In this document: in pieces, positions 6,165-43,363 of the stretch
Position numbering within the stretch: the stretch's first letter is position 1
Layout: every line of letters begins with the position of its first letter
Sequence record: PZ386972.1
Origin: a phage
Length of the DNA: 64,000 nt
Direction: 5' to 3' (one strand)
The notes under the pieces: model-generated
What the model was told of the DNA's origin: nothing
Databases searched by the model: none
Seen by the model: only the letters and a program-made list of their open reading frames with translations
Program-made: the position numbers and the translations under genes

Positions 6165-6931
6165 TGTCTCTTTCTGATCTAGCTAGACAAATTATTAAAG
6201 AGCAGCTAGATACTGCAAGTCGATCTGAAAACAATAAGAATACTGTTGTATACTCTGTTGAAACAGGATTAAAAGATCCTACCAGAGATGGTACTGTTGC
6301 TCAAGTATCTTTTAAGTTTTCAAAACCTGTATCACAAGATCTCCTTAATATTAGAACAGCTTCTATATTAAAAGCTGTATCCTCTAGTTTAGATCTTTCT
6401 GGAGATTTAGGTGCTCTAGAGAACTTAATACAAGCAACCGCTGGTAAAAAATCCTCAGTAGGTAAAAAACGTTCTACTGGTAGAGTGCAGGTAAATTTTG
6501 GTGATCCTAGTGATGTTGAAGATGGATATTCTGGTGCAGTAACAGGTGCTTCTGGACGTTTCGTGTCTAACAGCAATATGAAGGTTATACTGGAGATAGT
6601 TGCTAAAGAATACTTAATAAAGGATATGAAAAAAGCGGGAGCACCACTAAAATTTAGGACCGGTCGCTTTGCAAACTCTTTAAAAATTAAAGATGTTATG
6701 CTTCGTGATTCTGAAACTAGTAAAGGCTCCCCTGAATTGAACGTAACATATAATTATATGACTCGTCCATATTCTGTGTTCAATCCGGCAGTATCTACAT
6801 ACAGAAGATTATCTCTACGACCTTATCCTGGCGCTAGAAACCCACAAAAACTTATTGGTGAGGCTATAGCAAAAGCTGCAAGAGACCTGATTCACTCCAG
6901 ATATAAAATTAAGGTTAATCAAGGAACCTAA
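6164..6931 (+). CDS. structural protein of head-tail joining region (hypothetical)
   Basis: 255-aa ORF, start overlaps previous stop; synteny only. Confidence 0.45.
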   Translation: MSLSDLARQIIKEQLDTASRSENNKNTVVYSVETGLKDPTRDGTVAQVSFKFSKPVSQDLLNIRTASILKAVSSSLDLSGDLGALENLIQATAGKKSSVGKKRSTGRVQVNFGDPSDVEDGYSGAVTGASGRFVSNSNMKVILEIVAKEYLIKDMKKAGAPLKFRTGRFANSLKIKDVMLRDSETSKGSPELNVTYNYMTRPYSVFNPAVSTYRRLSLRPYPGARNPQKLIGEAIAKAARDLIHSRYKIKVNQGT

Positions 6932-35618: not shown

Positions 35619-36509
35619 TTATACCAAATCTTTAAGCGATTCAGCAACTAAAATTTCAATACGTTTTGCTAACATATCAATTTCTTCTTTACTTAAGTCA
35701 CCTGGGTCTTTACCTTCAGGCAGAAGAAAGTTAGCAACTACAGGTGTTAAACGCGTTTTTGTACGAATTAACTTAGCCAGTGCTTGTGCAGCTTTATTAC
35801 CAGAAGCATCATTATCTAGTAAGATAACAACAACTTTAACACCAGCAATAATATACGGACTGAACTTATCTGCAATGTTGTCTGAAGTAAACTGATGTGT
35901 ACCAAAGCAACAAGAAGCATAGTCTATACCATTATCCTCTAGATTCAGCATATCAAAGATACCTTCAACTAGAATAAGAACTGGAGTATTATATCGTACA
36001 GGAAAAATTGGCGGTGAAACTTGTTTTGGTTTTACTAGGTATTTAGGAGGGGCAGAACTGTTTATAGAACGACCCAAAAATAGGATATTGCGTCCAACAG
36101 CATCTGTGATTGGGAATACAATTCTGCCTTCCCAGTCTGCTTGGTGTTGGAAAGCAAAATATTTCTTCAAGGTCTTAGAACTTATACCTCGGAAATCACC
36201 TTCGAAAAGGTAAGCAGATTCAGGAATTGCAAGATTCGTAGATCCATTCCTAATCTCTGAAATCTTTTTACGTACCTGTGATAGTCTTGGGGACTGTCGG
36301 TACTGAGTCTCATTAAAATAATGGTAAATGCTCGGTATACCTTTACCGAAGCCACAACTCAAGCAGTGCATAATACCTGTTTCAGGATCAATACGCAAAC
36401 TTGGGTGTTTATCGTCATGATCTGGATTGAGACAACAGATGAGGATGTCCCCACCTGTGTCTTTATATTCAATGCCTTTCAGATCAAGTAGTTCTGTTAT
36501 TCTACTCAT
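35619..36509 (-). CDS. DnaG-type DNA primase (zinc-binding + TOPRIM)
   Basis: 296 aa; CLNPDHDDKHPS...HCLSCG zinc-binding motif; EGIFDMLNLED TOPRIM glutamate. Confidence 0.7.
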   Translation of the reverse strand: MSRITELLDLKGIEYKDTGGDILICCLNPDHDDKHPSLRIDPETGIMHCLSCGFGKGIPSIYHYFNETQYRQSPRLSQVRKKISEIRNGSTNLAIPESAYLFEGDFRGISSKTLKKYFAFQHQADWEGRIVFPITDAVGRNILFLGRSINSSAPPKYLVKPKQVSPPIFPVRYNTPVLILVEGIFDMLNLEDNGIDYASCCFGTHQFTSDNIADKFSPYIIAGVKVVVILLDNDASGNKAAQALAKLIRTKTRLTPVVANFLLPEGKDPGDLSKEEIDMLAKRIEILVAESLKDLV

Positions 36510-37978
36510 ATATCGCTGGCCTGTTCACCTGTTGAATTTTCAGCTTTGTCTTTCTTAGCACGTTTAGGTTGAGCCGGCTTATCCTTCTCAATAGGGATAA
36601 CGAACTCAGCTTCCATTTGAGATATATCTTCCATTGCTAGGTTGGTAGTGTTATCCATCCGCAGGGTTTCCCAGTTCATTTTAGGCATAAACTTCACGCT
36701 ATCAGAAGAACGAGTCTTAACGAAGTCAAACATAATAGCACCTTGACCATTATCAGCTTTTGCAGCATTAAGATTAGCAGCCATGTCTGCAGAATCAAGA
36801 ATCCCCTTTGACATACGTGTTCTACCATCTTGATCGATCTGGTAAGGAGCTACGCCAGCCACGTTATGTTTCTGGCAGATAGATTTGAAAGACGAGCTAA
36901 CAACCATCTGTTCTTTCCAGTCATACATATCAATGGTTTTAGAGTCTGGAAGTCGGGTTTGGTTAATATAGTCCAGTAAAGCTACTGTAACTTTATCTCC
37001 GTATCTAGCAACTAATTTATTTAATTCTACGTCAACTGTTGTAATGGACAGTTCAGGATCATAAACAATAATCATGGGAGTATGTAGTTCATATCCCTCT
37101 ATTAGCTTACTCTCCATATCGTAGAAATCACTCATCTTAGCCATTGTGTACTGTTTAACGAAGTTATCAAAAAGCTCTTCACCTCCATTAAACATTCTAG
37201 CTCTAGTTCTGGCCAATCTCAACAGAGCTGCACCTTCTAGAGTATTATTACGCATTGCTAGTGCTGATACACCAGCTAACATGGCTAGATTACGTCTAAA
37301 TACTTCATGTTCTTTCATCTCAATTGAGAAGTATGGAGCAATATCCCCATTCAAATATTGCTGAACCTGTATGTTTGAACAGATAATGGATTTACCAGTA
37401 CCACGCCAACCACCAAGCAGTAACGTTTCTGTGCGAGCTAAACCAATTTGAGCGTCGAACTCATTACAAATACCAAGAGCGATTAAGTTCAGTTTGGTAT
37501 CTTCTTCTCTCTGGAAAATACGCATGTTATCTGCGTTGAATACTTTTCCAGTATTCGTTACTTTCTCTTCTAATTTTAAGTGAAGGGAGGCAACTCGGTT
37601 GAGAATTTCTCCCTGATCCAGCATTGTTAAATCTTGAAGCACGTCTGTTTCTAGAAGCTTCAGGAATAAATCCTGTGTATATTCGGCCTCTAGGACTTCA
37701 AGTGCCTGTTCCATGCTCACTTCTGGAATTTGAGTGTTAGCTAAGACGACTAGAGCTTGAGAAAGGCGGGCGTTCCTATTAGCCTCAAGCATCAGTGCAT
37801 CAATGGACGGCATTGTGTTATATTTTTTATAATAATTCTGGACGGCTTGGTAAATTGAGGAGAAAGCGTCATTAAAATGATCTTTATGCAGTTTTGAGAA
37901 TGTTTCCAATGCTATTTGCTTCTGTTCAGAAGCTAGAAGCATCTTCAACACTACAGCTTGCACGTTAAACAAGGTCAT
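36506..37978 (-). CDS. DnaB-like replicative helicase
   Basis: Walker A GGWRGTGKS; six-frame ORF extends to 38029 but upstream start lies inside a terminator hairpin; start uncertain. Confidence 0.65.
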   Translation of the reverse strand: MTLFNVQAVVLKMLLASEQKQIALETFSKLHKDHFNDAFSSIYQAVQNYYKKYNTMPSIDALMLEANRNARLSQALVVLANTQIPEVSMEQALEVLEAEYTQDLFLKLLETDVLQDLTMLDQGEILNRVASLHLKLEEKVTNTGKVFNADNMRIFQREEDTKLNLIALGICNEFDAQIGLARTETLLLGGWRGTGKSIICSNIQVQQYLNGDIAPYFSIEMKEHEVFRRNLAMLAGVSALAMRNNTLEGAALLRLARTRARMFNGGEELFDNFVKQYTMAKMSDFYDMESKLIEGYELHTPMIIVYDPELSITTVDVELNKLVARYGDKVTVALLDYINQTRLPDSKTIDMYDWKEQMVVSSSFKSICQKHNVAGVAPYQIDQDGRTRMSKGILDSADMAANLNAAKADNGQGAIMFDFVKTRSSDSVKFMPKMNWETLRMDNTTNLAMEDISQMEAEFVIPIEKDKPAQPKRAKKDKAENSTGEQASDI

Positions 37979-38003
37979 TCTCCTTTGCACGCTTTCGTGC
38001 CTT

Positions 38004-38041
38004 CTAAATGCAAAAAGGGGAAGGAGCATAGCCCCCTCCCC
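38004..38041 (-). terminator. hairpin terminator after D5-like gene, overlapping alternative helicase start
   Basis: imperfect G/C-rich stem followed by TTTTTGCATTT on minus strand. Confidence 0.5.
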
Positions 38042-38060
38042 TTAGGTTTAATTTACCAGA

Positions 38061-38828
38061 TTATTCAGCAGCCGCAGCTTTTGCATCCAGTTTAGCACGC
38101 TTAGCGGCACCATCATAGTCCTTAGCAACCAGACCACGACGAGACAGCATAGATTTAACACCGCGCTCAGATTTACCAGTTTTCTCAGCGATCTCAGCAA
38201 CAGTCATGTTAGCCAGATCCAGACCTTCTAACAGATCTTCACGAGTTTTAGCACTTGAGGTTTCCTGTACCGGCATAGCAGCGATACGACCTTCACGAAG
38301 CAGGCTCAGAGCTTTACCACGGATCTGCTTGATATTACGACCGAAGTGAGCAGCGATAGCTTCAATAGTAGCACCAGCAACAACCTGATTAACAAAATCA
38401 GTTTCTTCATCCGGAGTAAAGGAACGAACAGCAGCAGCTTTTTCAGTTGGTTTAACAGAAGCAGTCATTTCCAGACTCAGGATCTTACCCTGTACCTGTT
38501 TAGCACCGAACTGACCACCAGCTACAGCAGCAGCGATTTCAGCATAGGTATACTGACCAGCATGAGCGTTCAGGAAATCAACCAGTTCAGCTTCCTGCTC
38601 AGGAGTCCACGGGGATTTCTGTACTTCGTTAGCTTTCTGTACTTCAAAACCTTCTTTACGCAGTTTAGAGCCAACAGAGCGAGCAGTAACATCTTTGCCA
38701 GTTTCAGCAGCCAGTTCAGTAGCGATAGCAGCTACTTGTTCTTGAGAGATTACAGAAACACCCAGAGCAGTGGCTTTTGCTTTCAGAGACTCGGTTACAC
38801 CTTCTACGTTCCAGTTCAGTTTAGACAT
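38061..38828 (-). CDS. D5-like DNA-binding protein with repeated helix-turn-helix-like modules
   Basis: 255 aa; three internal repeats of a WT/FTPE...EIA...G module; Ala/Lys-rich C-terminus. Confidence 0.55.
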   Translation of the reverse strand: MSKLNWNVEGVTESLKAKATALGVSVISQEQVAAIATELAAETGKDVTARSVGSKLRKEGFEVQKANEVQKSPWTPEQEAELVDFLNAHAGQYTYAEIAAAVAGGQFGAKQVQGKILSLEMTASVKPTEKAAAVRSFTPDEETDFVNQVVAGATIEAIAAHFGRNIKQIRGKALSLLREGRIAAMPVQETSSAKTREDLLEGLDLANMTVAEIAEKTGKSERGVKSMLSRRGLVAKDYDGAAKRAKLDAKAAAAE

Positions 38829-39603
38829 TATTATTTTTCTCCAATAGTTCTTTAATCGACAGGATTTCTATCCCATTCGTTTCGGCTTTCTTATAAGATG
38901 AGGAAGAACGCTTCGATTCATCCTCACAGATTAGGTATTTGACGTCTTTGGTAACGGATTTCTTAACCGTATACCCTAGACTTTCTAAATAGTTTGTTGC
39001 ATCCGTTCGATTTGCAAAATCTTGCAAAGATCCGGTAATACATACCGCGATTCCATTTGGCTGGGCAACTAATTCATCTGTAATGATGACGTCAGCTTTA
39101 GTGCCCTTAATACCAGTTGAAAATTTCCACGGTAATTCGATAACATCCTTGCCTTGTGGGGAATTTAGCCAGGCTTTATAATTTTCTCCAGCCTTGCCGT
39201 CAGCCTTCACATCATGGAAGCTAGTGCAATTTTGGGATAATTTCTTTGCTGCAACCTCTCCAATTAGAGGGATTCCTAAAGAACCGAGAACTGAACCAAA
39301 GTCAATGTCTCCGCGAACTTTAGTATTTAATTCGCTAATTAACTTAGCGGCAACCTTGCTACCCACGGCTCTAACCAAATCTTCTTCGGTTAGGTAAAAT
39401 AGTTCTGAGATCTTCGTCAGCTCCAGCTTCTCAATAGTTTTTGGACCAAAGCCCTTTAACTTCATTTTTGTACAGAAGTTCTCAATTAACTTACTTGATT
39501 GCGCTGGACAGTTGGACTTATTCCGACAAAATAATTGTCCGTTGACAAGATCTAGCTTAGAACCACAAGAGGGACATTGTGTTGGAATTTCGATTTTCAT
39601 CAA
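38821..39603 (-). CDS. NAD-dependent DNA ligase, C-terminal part (Zn finger, HhH, BRCT)
   Basis: 260 aa; CPSCGSKL...CRNKSNCPAQ zinc finger at N-terminus, GFGPKTIEKL HhH. Confidence 0.8.
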   Translation of the reverse strand: MMKIEIPTQCPSCGSKLDLVNGQLFCRNKSNCPAQSSKLIENFCTKMKLKGFGPKTIEKLELTKISELFYLTEEDLVRAVGSKVAAKLISELNTKVRGDIDFGSVLGSLGIPLIGEVAAKKLSQNCTSFHDVKADGKAGENYKAWLNSPQGKDVIELPWKFSTGIKGTKADVIITDELVAQPNGIAVCITGSLQDFANRTDATNYLESLGYTVKKSVTKDVKYLICEDESKRSSSSYKKAETNGIEILSIKELLEKNNNV

Positions 39604-39630
39604 ATTTCTTCCTTATCAATTTATATAAAT

Positions 39631-39659
39631 ATTATAGCAAGTATTTAAGCATTTAGCAA
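39631..39659 (-). promoter_or_regulatory. early promoter (TTGCTA, 17 bp, TATAAT) for ligase C-terminal gene
   Basis: read on minus strand in the ligase spacer. Confidence 0.6.
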
Positions 39660-39723
39660 CTACAATTTTAACTAACTTTGCTTACCCTCGCCATAACTTT
39701 CTATCCCTCAACTGAATGATAAT

Positions 39724-39752
39724 AGTATATACCTAAGCGGCGAAAATGTCAA
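39724..39752 (-). promoter_or_regulatory. second promoter in ligase spacer (TTGACA, 17 bp, TATACT)
   Basis: consensus -35 hexamer with 17-bp spacer read on minus strand. Confidence 0.5.
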
Positions 39753-39802
39753 TAACCACTTTATAATTCCGATATGGTAGATGGGTAGCAAAGGGTTATG
39801 TA

Positions 39803-40774
39803 TTAATCGTATACTCGTTCTACTATGCACGGGATTACACCACCAGCACGAATCACTCGAATCTGGCAACCGATCTCTAGATCGAGAGAGTTAATATAAT
39901 CAACGTTATTAAGAGTCGCTTTAACAATTGTAGCATCATCAATAATTACCGGTTCGAAATAACCAACTGGAGTTACTTTACCAGAAGCCCCTACCTGCCA
40001 TTCAACTTTAGTAAGAGTTGTAACCTCGCCTTCTTCATCCTCTTTAATAGCGAATGCTCCACGAGGGAATTTATTAGTCCAGCCTTCACGGAAGAATTTG
40101 TTGTTGTCATTAATACGAACAACTTTACCATCCGTCGGAATCCATTTAAAGAAGGAACGCACATTAACAACTGTTAAGAAGTTCTCATTCTCCAGCCAAA
40201 GCATATCTTTTAAATATGCTTCTGTAATACCTACAGATTCAGCAGAACACTGGATACCATATGCAACGAAGATTAAACCACCTTCTCCGATACGTTGTAC
40301 AAAATCATCACTATCTTTGAGGTTAATAGCACCAGAGGCAAAGTTACGTTTATTTTCTACTTCTTTTGTAATTAGAACTTCACCAGTGATTTGAGTAGGT
40401 ATTTTTTGGGAAATCTTTTTAGGGATATTCAGCAATCTTACGTTGCTTGTGACATCATTTCCCAGAATACCATTGCCACGAGTTAGTGCTTGAACAAATT
40501 CTCCATTAATATATAACAGAGAAATCGCACAACCATCTAACTTATCAGTTTCTACCTGACCTAATGGGTTGAATGGGGGTTTATCTCCACGATTATAATA
40601 AACTTTCTGTAAAGAATACATACGATATAGATGTGGAATATCACCCTTAGGTCCGATCTCTTCTTCTAACGGGAAGCGTTTTACCAGGCAATCATACTCC
40701 TCATCTGAGATTAAAGACATACCTTGATAATATGCTTCTTGGCAACGTTTAATAAAGTCTTTTACATTGGTCAT
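39803..40774 (-). CDS. NAD-dependent DNA ligase, N-terminal part (adenylation + OB domains)
   Basis: 323 aa; KLDGCAIS adenylation motif (KxDG); OB-domain-like C-terminus ending at a domain boundary. Confidence 0.8.
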   Translation of the reverse strand: MTNVKDFIKRCQEAYYQGMSLISDEEYDCLVKRFPLEEEIGPKGDIPHLYRMYSLQKVYYNRGDKPPFNPLGQVETDKLDGCAISLLYINGEFVQALTRGNGILGNDVTSNVRLLNIPKKISQKIPTQITGEVLITKEVENKRNFASGAINLKDSDDFVQRIGEGGLIFVAYGIQCSAESVGITEAYLKDMLWLENENFLTVVNVRSFFKWIPTDGKVVRINDNNKFFREGWTNKFPRGAFAIKEDEEGEVTTLTKVEWQVGASGKVTPVGYFEPVIIDDATIVKATLNNVDYINSLDLEIGCQIRVIRAGGVIPCIVERVYD

Positions 40775-41047
40775 TTATTCTGCCTCATAGTATGTGGGTT
40801 GTCTAGTGGATCCGTGCCATGTATAATTTTTGCAAAGATGCAAATATGTAGTTTTTACTAGCCTATCTGACAACGGAGAGTATATTTCAGCTACTAATAC
40901 TTCTTTTTCGTAATGAAGTGAAATCAGCTTATACCCACTTCTAGTTTTAGTATACTTTTCTCCATTAATCTTCTCCTCCCACATAAGTATAAGAGGCTGT
41001 CCGATGTACGGGAAAGGTTTAAGTGTACTTATACTTATCTTTTTCAC
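40775..41047 (-). CDS. hypothetical protein
   Basis: 90-aa ORF with GTG start downstream of promoter 41078-41106. Confidence 0.35.
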   Translation of the reverse strand: MKKISISTLKPFPYIGQPLILMWEEKINGEKYTKTRSGYKLISLHYEKEVLVAEIYSPLSDRLVKTTYLHLCKNYTWHGSTRQPTYYEAE

Positions 41048-41110: not shown

Positions 41111-41150
41111 ATTTATAAAGAAAAAGCCAAGAACTAGGCATTCTTGGCTT
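41111..41150 (-). terminator. rho-independent terminator after PC4-like gene
   Basis: AAGCCAAGAA / TTCTTGGCTT stem followed by TTTTCTTTAT on minus strand. Confidence 0.7.
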
Positions 41151-41442
41151 TGAGTTCTTCAGCTCGTTTCTGTACTTCATGTAAAACCTCAGATTCGCTA
41201 AGAATCTGTGTAAACGCATAGAAAAGCTGTGATGTTGTTTCTAGGGTGTAAGGAAAAGAGAAGCCAGATTTCGTTGGAAACCATTCATCATTAATATCAA
41301 GAAGCCAGTAACGAATACCCATGTATAGATTCCCACGAAATTCAGATACTGTTAATCTTACTTGTTCCCCCTCCTTCTCCCAAAGTATGATGGACTGGTC
41401 ATCAACGTGTCCTTCATAGTTTTGATTTACCTGTTCGCTCAT
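41134..41442 (-). CDS. PC4-like ssDNA-binding protein
   Basis: 102 aa; VRLTVSEFRGNLYMGIRYW resembles PC4 fold core; a T5 PC4 homolog is described in the literature. Confidence 0.55.
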   Translation of the reverse strand: MSEQVNQNYEGHVDDQSIILWEKEGEQVRLTVSEFRGNLYMGIRYWLLDINDEWFPTKSGFSFPYTLETTSQLFYAFTQILSESEVLHEVQKRAEELKAKNA

Positions 41443-41452
41443 TTACATATCC

Positions 41453-41482
41453 CAAATACACAAAAAGCCCCATATAGGGGCT
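41453..41482 (-). terminator. hairpin terminator
   Basis: AGCCCC-atata-GGGGCT hairpin followed by TTTTTGTGTATTT on minus strand. Confidence 0.6.
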
Positions 41483-41492
41483 AATTGGTTTC

Positions 41493-41789
41493 TTATCGGC
41501 CTACTGGAGAAGCACGATCTAACTCTGATTGGAGGCTAGTCACACGACGGACTTTCTCGACAGGAATAAAACGGAAGCTATCATTAGTACGAGAGAAGAC
41601 AAGGATTTCATCATCTTTCGCTTTACGAATACGTTCACGTTTAATACGCTCAGCCAGATATTTATCTTGGGCTGGATCAAATTCCATCGTACCCTGAAGG
41701 TACGTGGTTCCTTTCTGACGAAGTTTCTCGTAATGAAGATAAAACTCACCAAATTTTTCACATTGTGCGATAATTTCAGCTTTGGTCAT
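41493..41789 (-). CDS. hypothetical protein
   Basis: 98-aa ORF. Confidence 0.4.
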   Translation of the reverse strand: MTKAEIIAQCEKFGEFYLHYEKLRQKGTTYLQGTMEFDPAQDKYLAERIKRERIRKAKDDEILVFSRTNDSFRFIPVEKVRRVTSLQSELDRASPVGR

Positions 41790-43334: not shown

Positions 43335-43363
43335 ATTATACAGAAAAATTTTCCTGAAAGCAA
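43335..43363 (-). promoter_or_regulatory. strong early promoter matching the T5 PN25 sequence (TTGCTT, 17 bp, TATAAT, then CATAAATTTGAGAGAGGAG)
   Basis: minus-strand sequence TTTATTTGCTTTCAGGAAAATTTTTCTGTATAATAGATTCATAAATTTGAGAGAGGAG recognised from memory as PN25. Confidence 0.8.

Follow-up and report, generated by a model that had tools for sequence, protein, structure and literature searches.

The stretch of DNA analysed here (referred to as the window) comprises 64,000 nucleotides of a phage sequence, record PZ386972.1. Between positions 38821 and 40774 its minus strand carries ligA and, directly downstream on the same strand, ligB, which are followed by the D5 and dnaB genes. The preliminary description, made from the sequence alone, had assigned the adenylation and OB domains to the first of these reading frames and the zinc finger, HhH and BRCT domains to the second, and both Pfam matches and alignment bear this out. 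The features of the locus are as follows.

39803-40774, minus strand: ligA, subunit A, 323 amino acids (Pfam; identity to T5 AAU05253; PDB 9hu3_A; alignment to E. coli LigA; AF2 model)
39773-39802, minus strand: variable start of the spacer, the first 30 nt past the ligA stop codon (column variability in 32 T5-like sequences)
39698-39772, minus strand: P-K28b, T5 early promoter (annotation of AY692264; scan score 11/12; hexamers invariant in seven genera)
39605-39679, minus strand: P-K28a, T5 early promoter (annotation of AY692264; enrichment of its promoter class; equivalents upstream of ligB)
38821-39600, minus strand: ligB, subunit B, 259 amino acids from the ATG at 39600 (Pfam; PDB 9hu3_B; T5 AAU05254; alignment to E. 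coli LigA)

The ligA reading frame specifies a shortened domain Ia, a nucleotidyltransferase (adenylation) domain and an OB fold, with Pfam matches to DNA_ligase_aden (PF01653; E 2.7e-23) and DNA_ligase_OB (PF03120; E 3.5e-22). Its product aligns with residues 1 to approximately 401 of E. coli LigA, domain Ia being shortened after the second helix. The lysine of motif I (KLDG) is K78, encoded at 40543-40541, and the phage sequences K78-L-D-G, TRGNG, GEV and AIK align with E. coli LigA K115, R136, E173 and K314, respectively; at the position of K290 (motif IV) the phage protein has an arginine. K78, D80 and G81 are invariant among 30 homologues. The NMN-binding residues of E. coli LigA, which are attributed to the work of Sriskanda and Shuman, are reportedly Y22, H23, D32, Y35 and D36; the phage domain Ia has Y, Y, D, Y and D at these positions, four of the five being the same. 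The AF2 model of this half has a pLDDT of 88 and a TM score of 0.82 to 9i5i_A.

The LigB half, which aligns with the rest of E. coli LigA (residue 402 onwards), has Pfam matches to BRCT and HhH, the latter domain being reduced, and its C4 zinc finger (C9, C12, C25 and C31; CxxC...CxxxxxC) is encoded at 39576-39508. A single-sequence AF2 model of this protein reached a pLDDT of only 35 and was left out of the analysis. Read from a TTG codon, the start taken in the GenBank record of T5 (here 39603), the frame covers 38821-39603 and 260 amino acids. The ATG at 39600 appears the likelier start, since the relatives and PDB chain 9hu3_B begin there with MKI(E/Q)IP. A ribosome-binding site (AAGGAAG) is located at 39614-39608, and the 3' end of ligB overlaps the start of D5, whose ATG is at 38828-38826, by 8 nt.

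The break lies in the linker between the OB fold and the zinc finger. The LigA half ends at about S401 of E. coli LigA and the first cysteine of LigB corresponds to C408, so that relative to the bacterial enzyme approximately eight linker residues are absent; compared with single-chain phage relatives, too, the loss is confined to linker residues. The alignment with E. coli LigA thus places the junction at a domain boundary, as had been proposed, and no essential segment is missing from it. The domains follow one another over two reading frames, the OB fold in the first and the C4 zinc finger, HhH and BRCT domains in the second. They are not part of one polypeptide as in the LigA family, being separated by a stop codon (TAA, 39805-39803), a 202-bp spacer and a ribosome-binding site and ATG belonging to ligB, and it is this division over two polypeptides which marks the T5 type off from that family. 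An earlier estimate of about 200 bp for the spacer was sound; its exact length, measured from the likelier ATG at 39600, is 202 bp and not 199.

Two strong sigma-70-like promoters occupy most of this spacer. P-K28b has the -35 hexamer TTGACA (39752-39747) separated by 17 bp from the -10 hexamer TATACT (39729-39724) and scores 11/12, while P-K28a, scoring 10/12, consists of TTGCTA (39659-39654), a 17-bp interval and TATAAT (39636-39631) with an extended -10 TG at 39639-39638. These are the two promoter-like elements noted at the outset; they lie on the correct strand and were the best two matches in a scan of a 3.6-kb region. That scan gave nine promoter-like matches where 8.8 were expected, a number not above chance, and pattern count alone therefore proves nothing. 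The two are regarded as real because they are invariant in seven genera of the Demerecviridae (for P-K28b, TTGAC and TATA(C/A)T), other spacer sequence having diverged, and because they are named promoters in the T5 record. Sites of the class TTGCT-N15-TG-N-TATAAT, to which P-K28a belongs, occur ten times in the window as against 0.28 expected by chance. The names P-K28b and P-K28a presumably denote the functionally selected T5 promoters of Gentz and Bujard (1985). No paper giving the sequences of these two promoters was found in the literature searched.

Over 226 nt, both promoter features included, the spacer region is 100% identical to AY692264. In 32 T5-like genomes, third codon positions in the genes on either side vary some 11-14 times more than the spacer does. 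Its sole freely varying stretch is the first 30 nt, 39773-39802, where mean column variability is 0.032 versus 0.0025 in the two promoter blocks, and where no terminator-like hairpin was seen past ligA. No endonuclease or other gene, nor any recognisable remnant of one, is present between the halves in the window, and the two promoter footprints fill the space, so this candidate was rejected. A structured RNA was likewise rejected: although the leader of P-K28b has an unusually stable predicted fold in the window (-26.1 kcal/mol, z = -3.3), RNAalifold found 0 shared pairs across six genera, and positions 39400-40000 contain no match to any Rfam family, introns included, at E<=1. In our reading the 202-bp spacer is no scar: two back-to-back early promoters and the ligB ribosome-binding site make up nearly all of it.

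The domain content of the two genes, the position of the break, the constraint upon genes and spacer, and the identity to annotated T5 features are all established by these analyses. The locus very probably encodes the heterodimeric NAD+-dependent DNA ligase of a T5-like phage (Tequintavirus). This arrangement is already known. GenBank AY692264 (T5) annotates, in order, ligA (T5p114), promoter P-K 28b, promoter P-K 28a and ligB (T5p115), and the two-gene ligase has been published for T5 and the whole family (for T5: Wang et al. 2005, Virology 332:45, as cited in PMC1684257). The question of whether the split is standard in T5, raised in the preliminary description, can thus be answered in the affirmative, and comparison with T5-like genomes shows both genes intact in every genus examined. 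It is present in 441 close phage records, and in approximately 960 phage records altogether; the best 120 matches in a protein search are all 310-340 amino acids long. Fifty-eight non-redundant metagenomic loci share the architecture, and the OB/zinc-finger breakpoint is identical in 65 further loci.

We infer that the window's pair depends on NAD+ and seals nicks, and that ligA, spacer and ligB follow an operon logic. Subunit A, with domain Ia, the adenylation domain and the OB fold, would react with NAD+ to form a lysyl-AMP intermediate at K78, and subunit B, with its zinc finger, HhH and BRCT domains, would provide the part of the clamp that binds DNA. The two would encircle a nick and seal it in the manner of single-chain LigA, but joined non-covalently. 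P-K28b and P-K28a may start or boost transcription of ligB and of the downstream D5, dnaB, primase and polymerase genes. Since no terminator was seen after ligA, this gene is probably transcribed from upstream promoters, with transcripts reading through the spacer.

Three other explanations were weighed. That an old nonsense mutation or indel killed the gene, leaving two decaying remnants, might be thought of given the interruption itself, the LigA which E. coli already provides, and a search of the accessible literature which found neither a direct enzyme assay nor other biochemical data for the T5 LigA/LigB pair. Purifying selection acts on both halves, however, with dN/dS values against close relatives of 0.03 for ligA and 0.11-0.28 for ligB. 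Both frames are intact in every genus examined and their termini are unchanged even in genera whose synonymous sites are saturated. The catalytic and zinc-binding residues are retained (the arginine in motif IV apart), the architecture recurs in the phage records and metagenomic loci enumerated above, and there is a solved structure of the orthologous heterodimer from phage PR1, bound to nicked DNA. Decay is extremely improbable and is already effectively refuted; the selection, the few missing linker residues and the approximately 960 phage genomes sustain the original proposal of a functional two-subunit ligase rather than a pseudogene. Equally remote is the idea that the spacer arose in sequencing or assembly, one of two outcomes which the preliminary description had named as fatal to its reading, or that an intron, intein or translational bypass joins the frames. 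Nothing beyond the interruption speaks for it, whereas T5 has the same 226 nt and 430 of the 441 independent matching phage records cover at least 80% of the query spanning the spacer. Against any joining stand the absence of Rfam matches noted above, the spacer's length, which is not a multiple of three, the ribosome-binding site and ATG of ligB, and the PDB entries, in which the proteins are two separate chains, each with both ends at the gene boundaries.

It is more difficult to dismiss the view that each half works on its own, either in addition or for the most part. LigB, produced with D5, DnaB and primase under its own strong promoters, would then serve as a DNA-binding BRCT scaffold in the replisome or as an excess nick-binding factor, which LigA joins when sealing is needed; the split would regulate the ligase, and this could matter in a phage which packages nicked DNA. 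We consider it unlikely. Such a role would accord with the two promoters dedicated to ligB, ligA having none of its own in the spacer, with the overlap of ligB and D5, and with the consensus promoter upstream of ligB as the most conserved junction feature in the 58 uncultured loci. One PDB entry was, moreover, made with a "phage nick sequence", from which it follows that the depositors also considered a link to genome nicks. On the other hand there is no evidence of a partner for LigB other than LigA, the solved PR1 complex is a canonical ligase-on-nick assembly, and this group of phages has no strict need of separate halves, since in some relatives a single-chain ligase stands at the same place in the gene order. 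We therefore retain the heterodimeric ligase as our reading.

The single-chain relatives are compact NAD+ ligases of 555-586 amino acids in uncultured T5-like phages (P0152, P0158, P0171, P0173 and others), and are rare. Their compact domain set is that of the split enzyme, identity to the LigA half of the window is 38-47%, and the genes around them follow the order found in the window (PC4-like gene, ligase, D5-like gene, DnaB, primase, PolA); where the window has a stop codon they run from OB fold to zinc finger through a linker of 6-15 residues. In a bootstrapped neighbour-joining tree of 85 LigA-half sequences they cluster with split forms in a compact clade (88%), and a second supported clade (92%) holds the cultured Demerecviridae, all of them split, but the backbone nodes have 0-30% support, so neither the number nor the direction of fission or fusion events can be read from this tree.

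Among the 58 uncultured T5-like loci, 47 have a near-consensus promoter directly upstream of ligB. It is present whatever the length of the gap (24-1775 bp) and sometimes overlaps the ligA stop codon. TTGAC contains TGA and TATAAT contains TAA, so that the promoter hexamers themselves hold stop codons, and ligA in several lineages actually ends at one of these. In the rare single-chain relatives promoter-like sequence is either threaded through the linker codons or lacking. The linker codons of one fused gene (L042; TTGAATTCGGCAGCCTCGGAGTGCTATAAT) spell TTGAAT-18-TGcTATAAT, a 10/12 match plus TG, and another (L045) has an 11/12 promoter-like site just past the first cysteine pair; no such site was seen at the linker in L046 or L047. 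With four fused genes to go by, promoters inside their linkers are a possible lead and not a result.

Longer gaps between ligA and ligB carry cargo, including a T5orf172-like putative endonuclease, thioredoxin, a SET-domain protein and a DprA-like protein. The putative endonuclease gene (T5orf172/phrog_681), with a product of roughly 120 amino acids, lies within the gap in 24 uncultured relatives. In Vibrio phages VPG01 and 70E37-2 the ORFs within the gap had no endonuclease match; one of them is DprA-like. We advance as a tentative proposal, and lean slightly against it ourselves, that in the T5-like group the conserved element is the near-consensus replication-operon promoter and not the gap, and that this promoter caused or maintains the split. 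Were this so, the gap once opened would be a landing site for cargo genes, and the ligase an instance of gene fission driven by transcription-unit architecture, with separate dosage of the catalytic and DNA-binding halves. The comparison offers a small, testable case of regulatory DNA coupled to gene fission in phage genomes.

Free-standing homing endonucleases have produced "genes in pieces" in T4-like phages, as with nrdA and mobE of Aeromonas phage Aeh1, or gp39 and gp60 of T4 with mobA. There, as in the T5-like ligase, the break in an essential enzyme falls between domains and the two resulting polypeptides function together. An endonuclease gene lies between the halves there, as a putative one does in the 24 uncultured relatives, whereas the spacer of the window holds promoters only.

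E. coli LigA (PDB 2OWO, on nicked DNA-adenylate) has the same order of domains (Ia, NTase, OB, zinc finger, HhH, BRCT) and shares the catalytic motifs and four cysteines with the phage enzyme, being 34% identical to the LigA half and 28% to the LigB half. It is a single polypeptide of 671 amino acids, compared with 323 plus 259 in the phage, where domain Ia is shortened, the NTase domain bears deletions and the HhH domain is reduced. The split ligase is a clean natural case of a multidomain ligase working as two chains cut at the OB/zinc-finger linker, and as such is of interest to enzyme engineering.

Two PDB entries released in 2026, 9hu3 and 9i5i, are entitled [quoted passage not shown]; no paper on this ligase was found in the literature searched. 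Providencia phage vB_PreS_PR1 belongs to a different genus (Priunavirus), and its enzyme has the same two-chain architecture, the chains starting and ending at the same places as those of the window. The LigA half matches 9hu3_A (E 2e-103) and the LigB half 9hu3_B, "DNA ligase subunit B" (E 5e-81); in the structural alignment identity to the LigA half is approximately 52-53%. In the PR1 record one promoter and a terminator are annotated between the two genes, as opposed to two promoters and no predicted terminator in the window. The physical heterodimer, crystallised on nicked DNA, is a result for the PR1 orthologue.

In phage oldekolle an additional 200 bp is located upstream of ligA and not in the spacer. 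The window has an extra 90-amino acid ORF just upstream of ligA which is absent in T5 st0. With the T5 annotation at textbook level and the structure of an orthologous heterodimer public, little is at stake in the finding as such. The window is a T5-like isolate other than T5, with approximately 96% nucleotide identity in the ligase genes and amino acid identities of 98.8% (LigA, AAU05253) and 97.3% (LigB, AAU05254); gene order, strand and breakpoint are the same, and its ligase differs from that of T5 in nothing of substance.

The DNA ligase of this phage is encoded by two minus-strand genes, ligA for the adenylation and OB half and ligB for the zinc-finger, HhH and BRCT half. This layout, proposed in the preliminary description, is borne out by ORF calls and Pfam searches: the 323-aa ORF matches DNA_ligase_aden (E 2.7e-23) and DNA_ligase_OB (E 3.5e-22), and the ligB ORF has BRCT and HhH motif matches and an N-terminus (MKIEIPTQCPSCGS...C...C) that is a C4 zinc finger.

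Features of the ligase locus and its surroundings
36506-38029: dnaB ORF
38015-38043, minus strand: strong terminator-like hairpin 3' of the D5 gene, 13-bp stem with 8 G-C pairs
38821-39603, minus strand: ligB ORF, 260 aa counted from TTG (ATG at 39600)
39605-39679, minus strand: P-K28a, transferred from the AY692264 annotation
39659-39631, minus (coding) strand: promoter-like TTGCTA-17-TATAAT, 10/12 match plus extended -10 TG
39698-39772, minus strand: P-K28b, transferred from the AY692264 annotation
39752-39724, minus (coding) strand: promoter-like TTGACA-17-TATACT, 11/12 match
39803-40774, minus strand: ligA ORF, 323 aa
41123-41151, minus strand: strong terminator-like hairpin inside the 3' end of the PC4-like ORF (41134-41442)
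41466-41482, both strands: strong terminator-like hairpin 3' of ORF 41493-41789

Both ORFs were aligned to E. coli LigA. The 323-aa ORF spans residues 1 to approximately 401; its domain Ia is shortened and its adenylation domain has some deletions. The first cysteine of the ligB ORF corresponds to C408, and only about eight linker residues of the E. coli enzyme are without a counterpart. The KLDG lysine (K78), TRGNG, GEV and AIK motifs are kept, as are four of the five NMN-contacting residues of domain Ia and all four zinc-finger cysteines, and K78, D80 and G81 are invariant across 30 homologues. The description of the break as lying exactly on a domain boundary is thus correct.

The possibility that the locus is a pseudogene was rejected because of low dN/dS, intact ORFs in distant genera and widespread ligB relatives. 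Compared with the close relatives T5_ev212, oldekolle and T5 st0, ligA has a dN/dS of 0.03 and ligB one of 0.11-0.28. Even in Sugarlandvirus, Hongcheonvirus, Vipunavirus and Shenzhenvirus, where synonymous sites have reached saturation, neither ORF is disrupted and their ends are unchanged. Among the best 120 protein matches to the ligA ORF, whose identity ranges from 98% to 46%, lengths are 310-340 aa, so that the proteins end after the OB fold; the one exception is a partial sequence of 240 aa (P0012). Relatives of the ligB ORF were found in 963 phage records, the hosts being Escherichia, Salmonella, Klebsiella, Pectobacterium, Proteus, Providencia, Vibrio and Aeromonas, and every annotated record inspected has the order ligA, ligB, D5, dnaB, with ligA directly upstream of ligB. 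Purifying selection and intact ORFs, along with annotation, literature and the chains of a solved structure, support the proposal that the split ligase functions as two subunits in this phage.

The two promoter-like elements described in the spacer are real and lie on the coding strand, being recovered by a motif scan and both named in the T5 record. P-K28b and P-K28a are names of classic T5 promoters, functionally selected in the Bujard laboratory. Within the 3.6 kb scanned these elements are the top two promoter matches; the total of nine is not above that in shuffles (8.8), so the count alone carries no weight. Conservation was assessed over 32 T5-like sequences.

Mean column variability, 32 T5-like sequences
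Whole spacer: 0.0069
First 30 nt past the ligA stop: 0.032
ligA second codon positions: 0.0074
ligA third codon positions: 0.099
ligB third codon positions: 0.077

By these figures third codon positions vary approximately 11-14 times more than the spacer, which is about as conserved as ligA second positions; appreciable variation is confined to the first 30 nt past the ligA stop. Among seven genera compared, TTGAC...TATA(C/A)T of P-K28b and TTGC...TTGnTATAnT of P-K28a are invariant, the remaining spacer having diverged. The two annotated 75-bp promoter features occupy nearly all of the spacer which, judged from sequence, is a regulatory block. A scan for terminator-like hairpins between ligA and ligB found none, and an Rfam search of the spacer matched no family. 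Transcription of ligA would, we infer, begin at promoters further upstream and read through, with P-K28b and P-K28a adding transcription of ligB and the replication genes beyond. The predicted P-K28b leader RNA (39598-39718, minus strand) folds into a long hairpin in which the leader is paired with the P-K28a -10 region (-26.1 kcal/mol, z = -3.3; 0/200 shuffles as stable); no consensus structure for it is shared across six genera.

Elsewhere in the window, the TTGCT-N15-TG-N-TATAAT class, which includes P-K28a, has 10 sites (0.28 expected) spanning 35231-63621. Up to 46.9 kb all are on the minus strand and from 52 kb all are on the plus strand, a switch suggestive of divergent early transcription units. 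The core sequence of P-N25, a classic T5 promoter (TTGCTTTCAGGAAAATTTTTCTGTATAAT), occurs as an exact copy at 43335-43363 (minus strand). Terminator-like sites in the scanned region number 8, against 2.2 expected.

A metagenome scan yielded 80 further loci. When these and the loci obtained before were submitted to a junction classifier, 65 were split and no further fused locus was found, the remainder being truncated by contig ends. The break position is constant in all split loci, with a gap of 24 to 1775 bp. Promoters were sought in 58 non-redundant, uncultured split loci as 11-12/12 matches to TTGACA-N16-18-TATAAT.

Matches to the consensus promoter
80 nt upstream of ligB: 11-12/12 in 47/58 (at least 10/12 in 52/58)
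80 nt upstream of other ORF starts, same loci: 11-12/12 in 57/407
Shuffled upstream sequences: 11-12/12 in 3/1160

The sigma-70 match upstream of ligB is independent of gap length and usually has an A-rich block 5' of it; example sites are L056 2231-2283 and L055 2087-2115, among the uncultured loci L052-L131, and L050 3936-3961. The -35 hexamer and the end of ligA overlap in seven loci; in six of them the TGA of TTGAC serves as the ligA stop, and in the seventh (L055) the hexamer lies within the coding sequence, directly before a TAA stop. In L050, ligA ends at the TAA that forms part of TATAAT. This pattern across phages, in which the constant feature of the break is the promoter, is an evolutionary curiosity and the sole part of the analysis that may be new.

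Long gaps in many marine and freshwater relatives hold cargo genes. In 24 loci the gap encodes a member of a family of approximately 120 aa that is possibly a free-standing homing endonuclease: its hit to phrog_681 "endonuclease" has an E value of 6e-13 (5e-37 for a 249-aa member), and there is a weak hit to Pfam T5orf172. Other cargo comprises a thioredoxin, a SET-domain protein, a DUF3307 membrane protein and a DprA-like protein.

Example gap cargo genes
L100 3932-4297; L083 3646-4395; L048 3941-4330
L075 3433-3705; L076 3448-3744; L004 1781-2344

Compact single-chain relatives of 555-586 aa (38-47% identity) came out of an exhaustive profile-free search. Four are on uncultured contigs with T5 gene order (PC4-like gene, ligase, D5-like gene, DnaB, primase, PolA), their D5-like protein being 37% identical to that of the window.

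Fused ligase genes, 555-566 aa
L042 5790-7490
L045 5001-6674
L046 4875-6563
L047 2100-3767

Their OB/zinc-finger linker has 6-15 residues, and the split proteins stop and resume exactly at its two sides. The L042 linker codons (6741-6770) read TTGAAT-18-TGcTATAAT, the top promoter-like site within a 2.9-kb region; the signal is less clear in the other fused genes. In a bootstrapped NJ tree support falls on the compact clade, at 88%, and on the clade of cultured, all-split Demerecviridae, at 92%; the backbone has no resolution. The fused forms may be ancestral or re-fused, and the first split may have been made by a promoter or by insertion of an endonuclease.

Several observations concern the neighbouring genes. 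The stop of ligB and the start of D5 share 8 nt (ATGTCTAA; 38821-38828, minus strand; D5 gene, 38061-38828), which suggests translational coupling. D5 has HTH matches resembling sigma-70 region 4, and a homologue lies 3' of the ligase in all T5-like loci examined, uncultured ones included (37% identity). The TAA of a 90-aa ORF (40775-41047, minus strand; phrog_35018, function unassigned; no match in a Pfam search) abuts the ligA ATG. T5 st0 is without this ORF, just 87 nt separating its PC4-like gene and ligA, whereas phage oldekolle has an additional 66-aa ORF upstream of ligA, a pattern suggestive of a small hot spot for insertions. The T5 record also annotates genes for HNH endonucleases, lying close to D2 and in the interval from dnaB to the primase gene (281-781 and 7575-8108 of L009, the AY692264 locus).

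The split-ligase interpretation is right, yet it was anticipated in annotation, literature and structure. T5 st0 (AY692264) is annotated in the order ligA (T5p114, AAU05253), promoter P-K 28b, promoter P-K 28a, ligB (T5p115, AAU05254), and the window is 100% identical to it over 226 nt covering the entire spacer. Two papers confirm the two-gene arrangement; for T5 itself, PMC1684257 cites Wang et al. 2005 (Virology 332:45). For LigN, one of the two reports that an Ia-NTase-OB fragment self-adenylates and that later steps require the zinc finger, HhH and BRCT part. The LigA and LigB halves of the window have hits to chains A and B of PDB 9hu3 and 9i5i (E 2e-103 and 5e-81; released January and February 2026), whose titles name the heterodimeric ligase of phage PR1 on a nicked 21-mer DNA. 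Chain B shows 100% identity to the LigB protein of Providencia phage vB_PreS_PR1. An AF2 model for the LigA half (pLDDT 88) superposes on 9i5i_A with TM 0.82. The preliminary description had left open whether the split is usual in T5; comparison with T5-like genomes and the literature shows that the split is standard, and published, for T5 and its family, and the arrangement is therefore already known.
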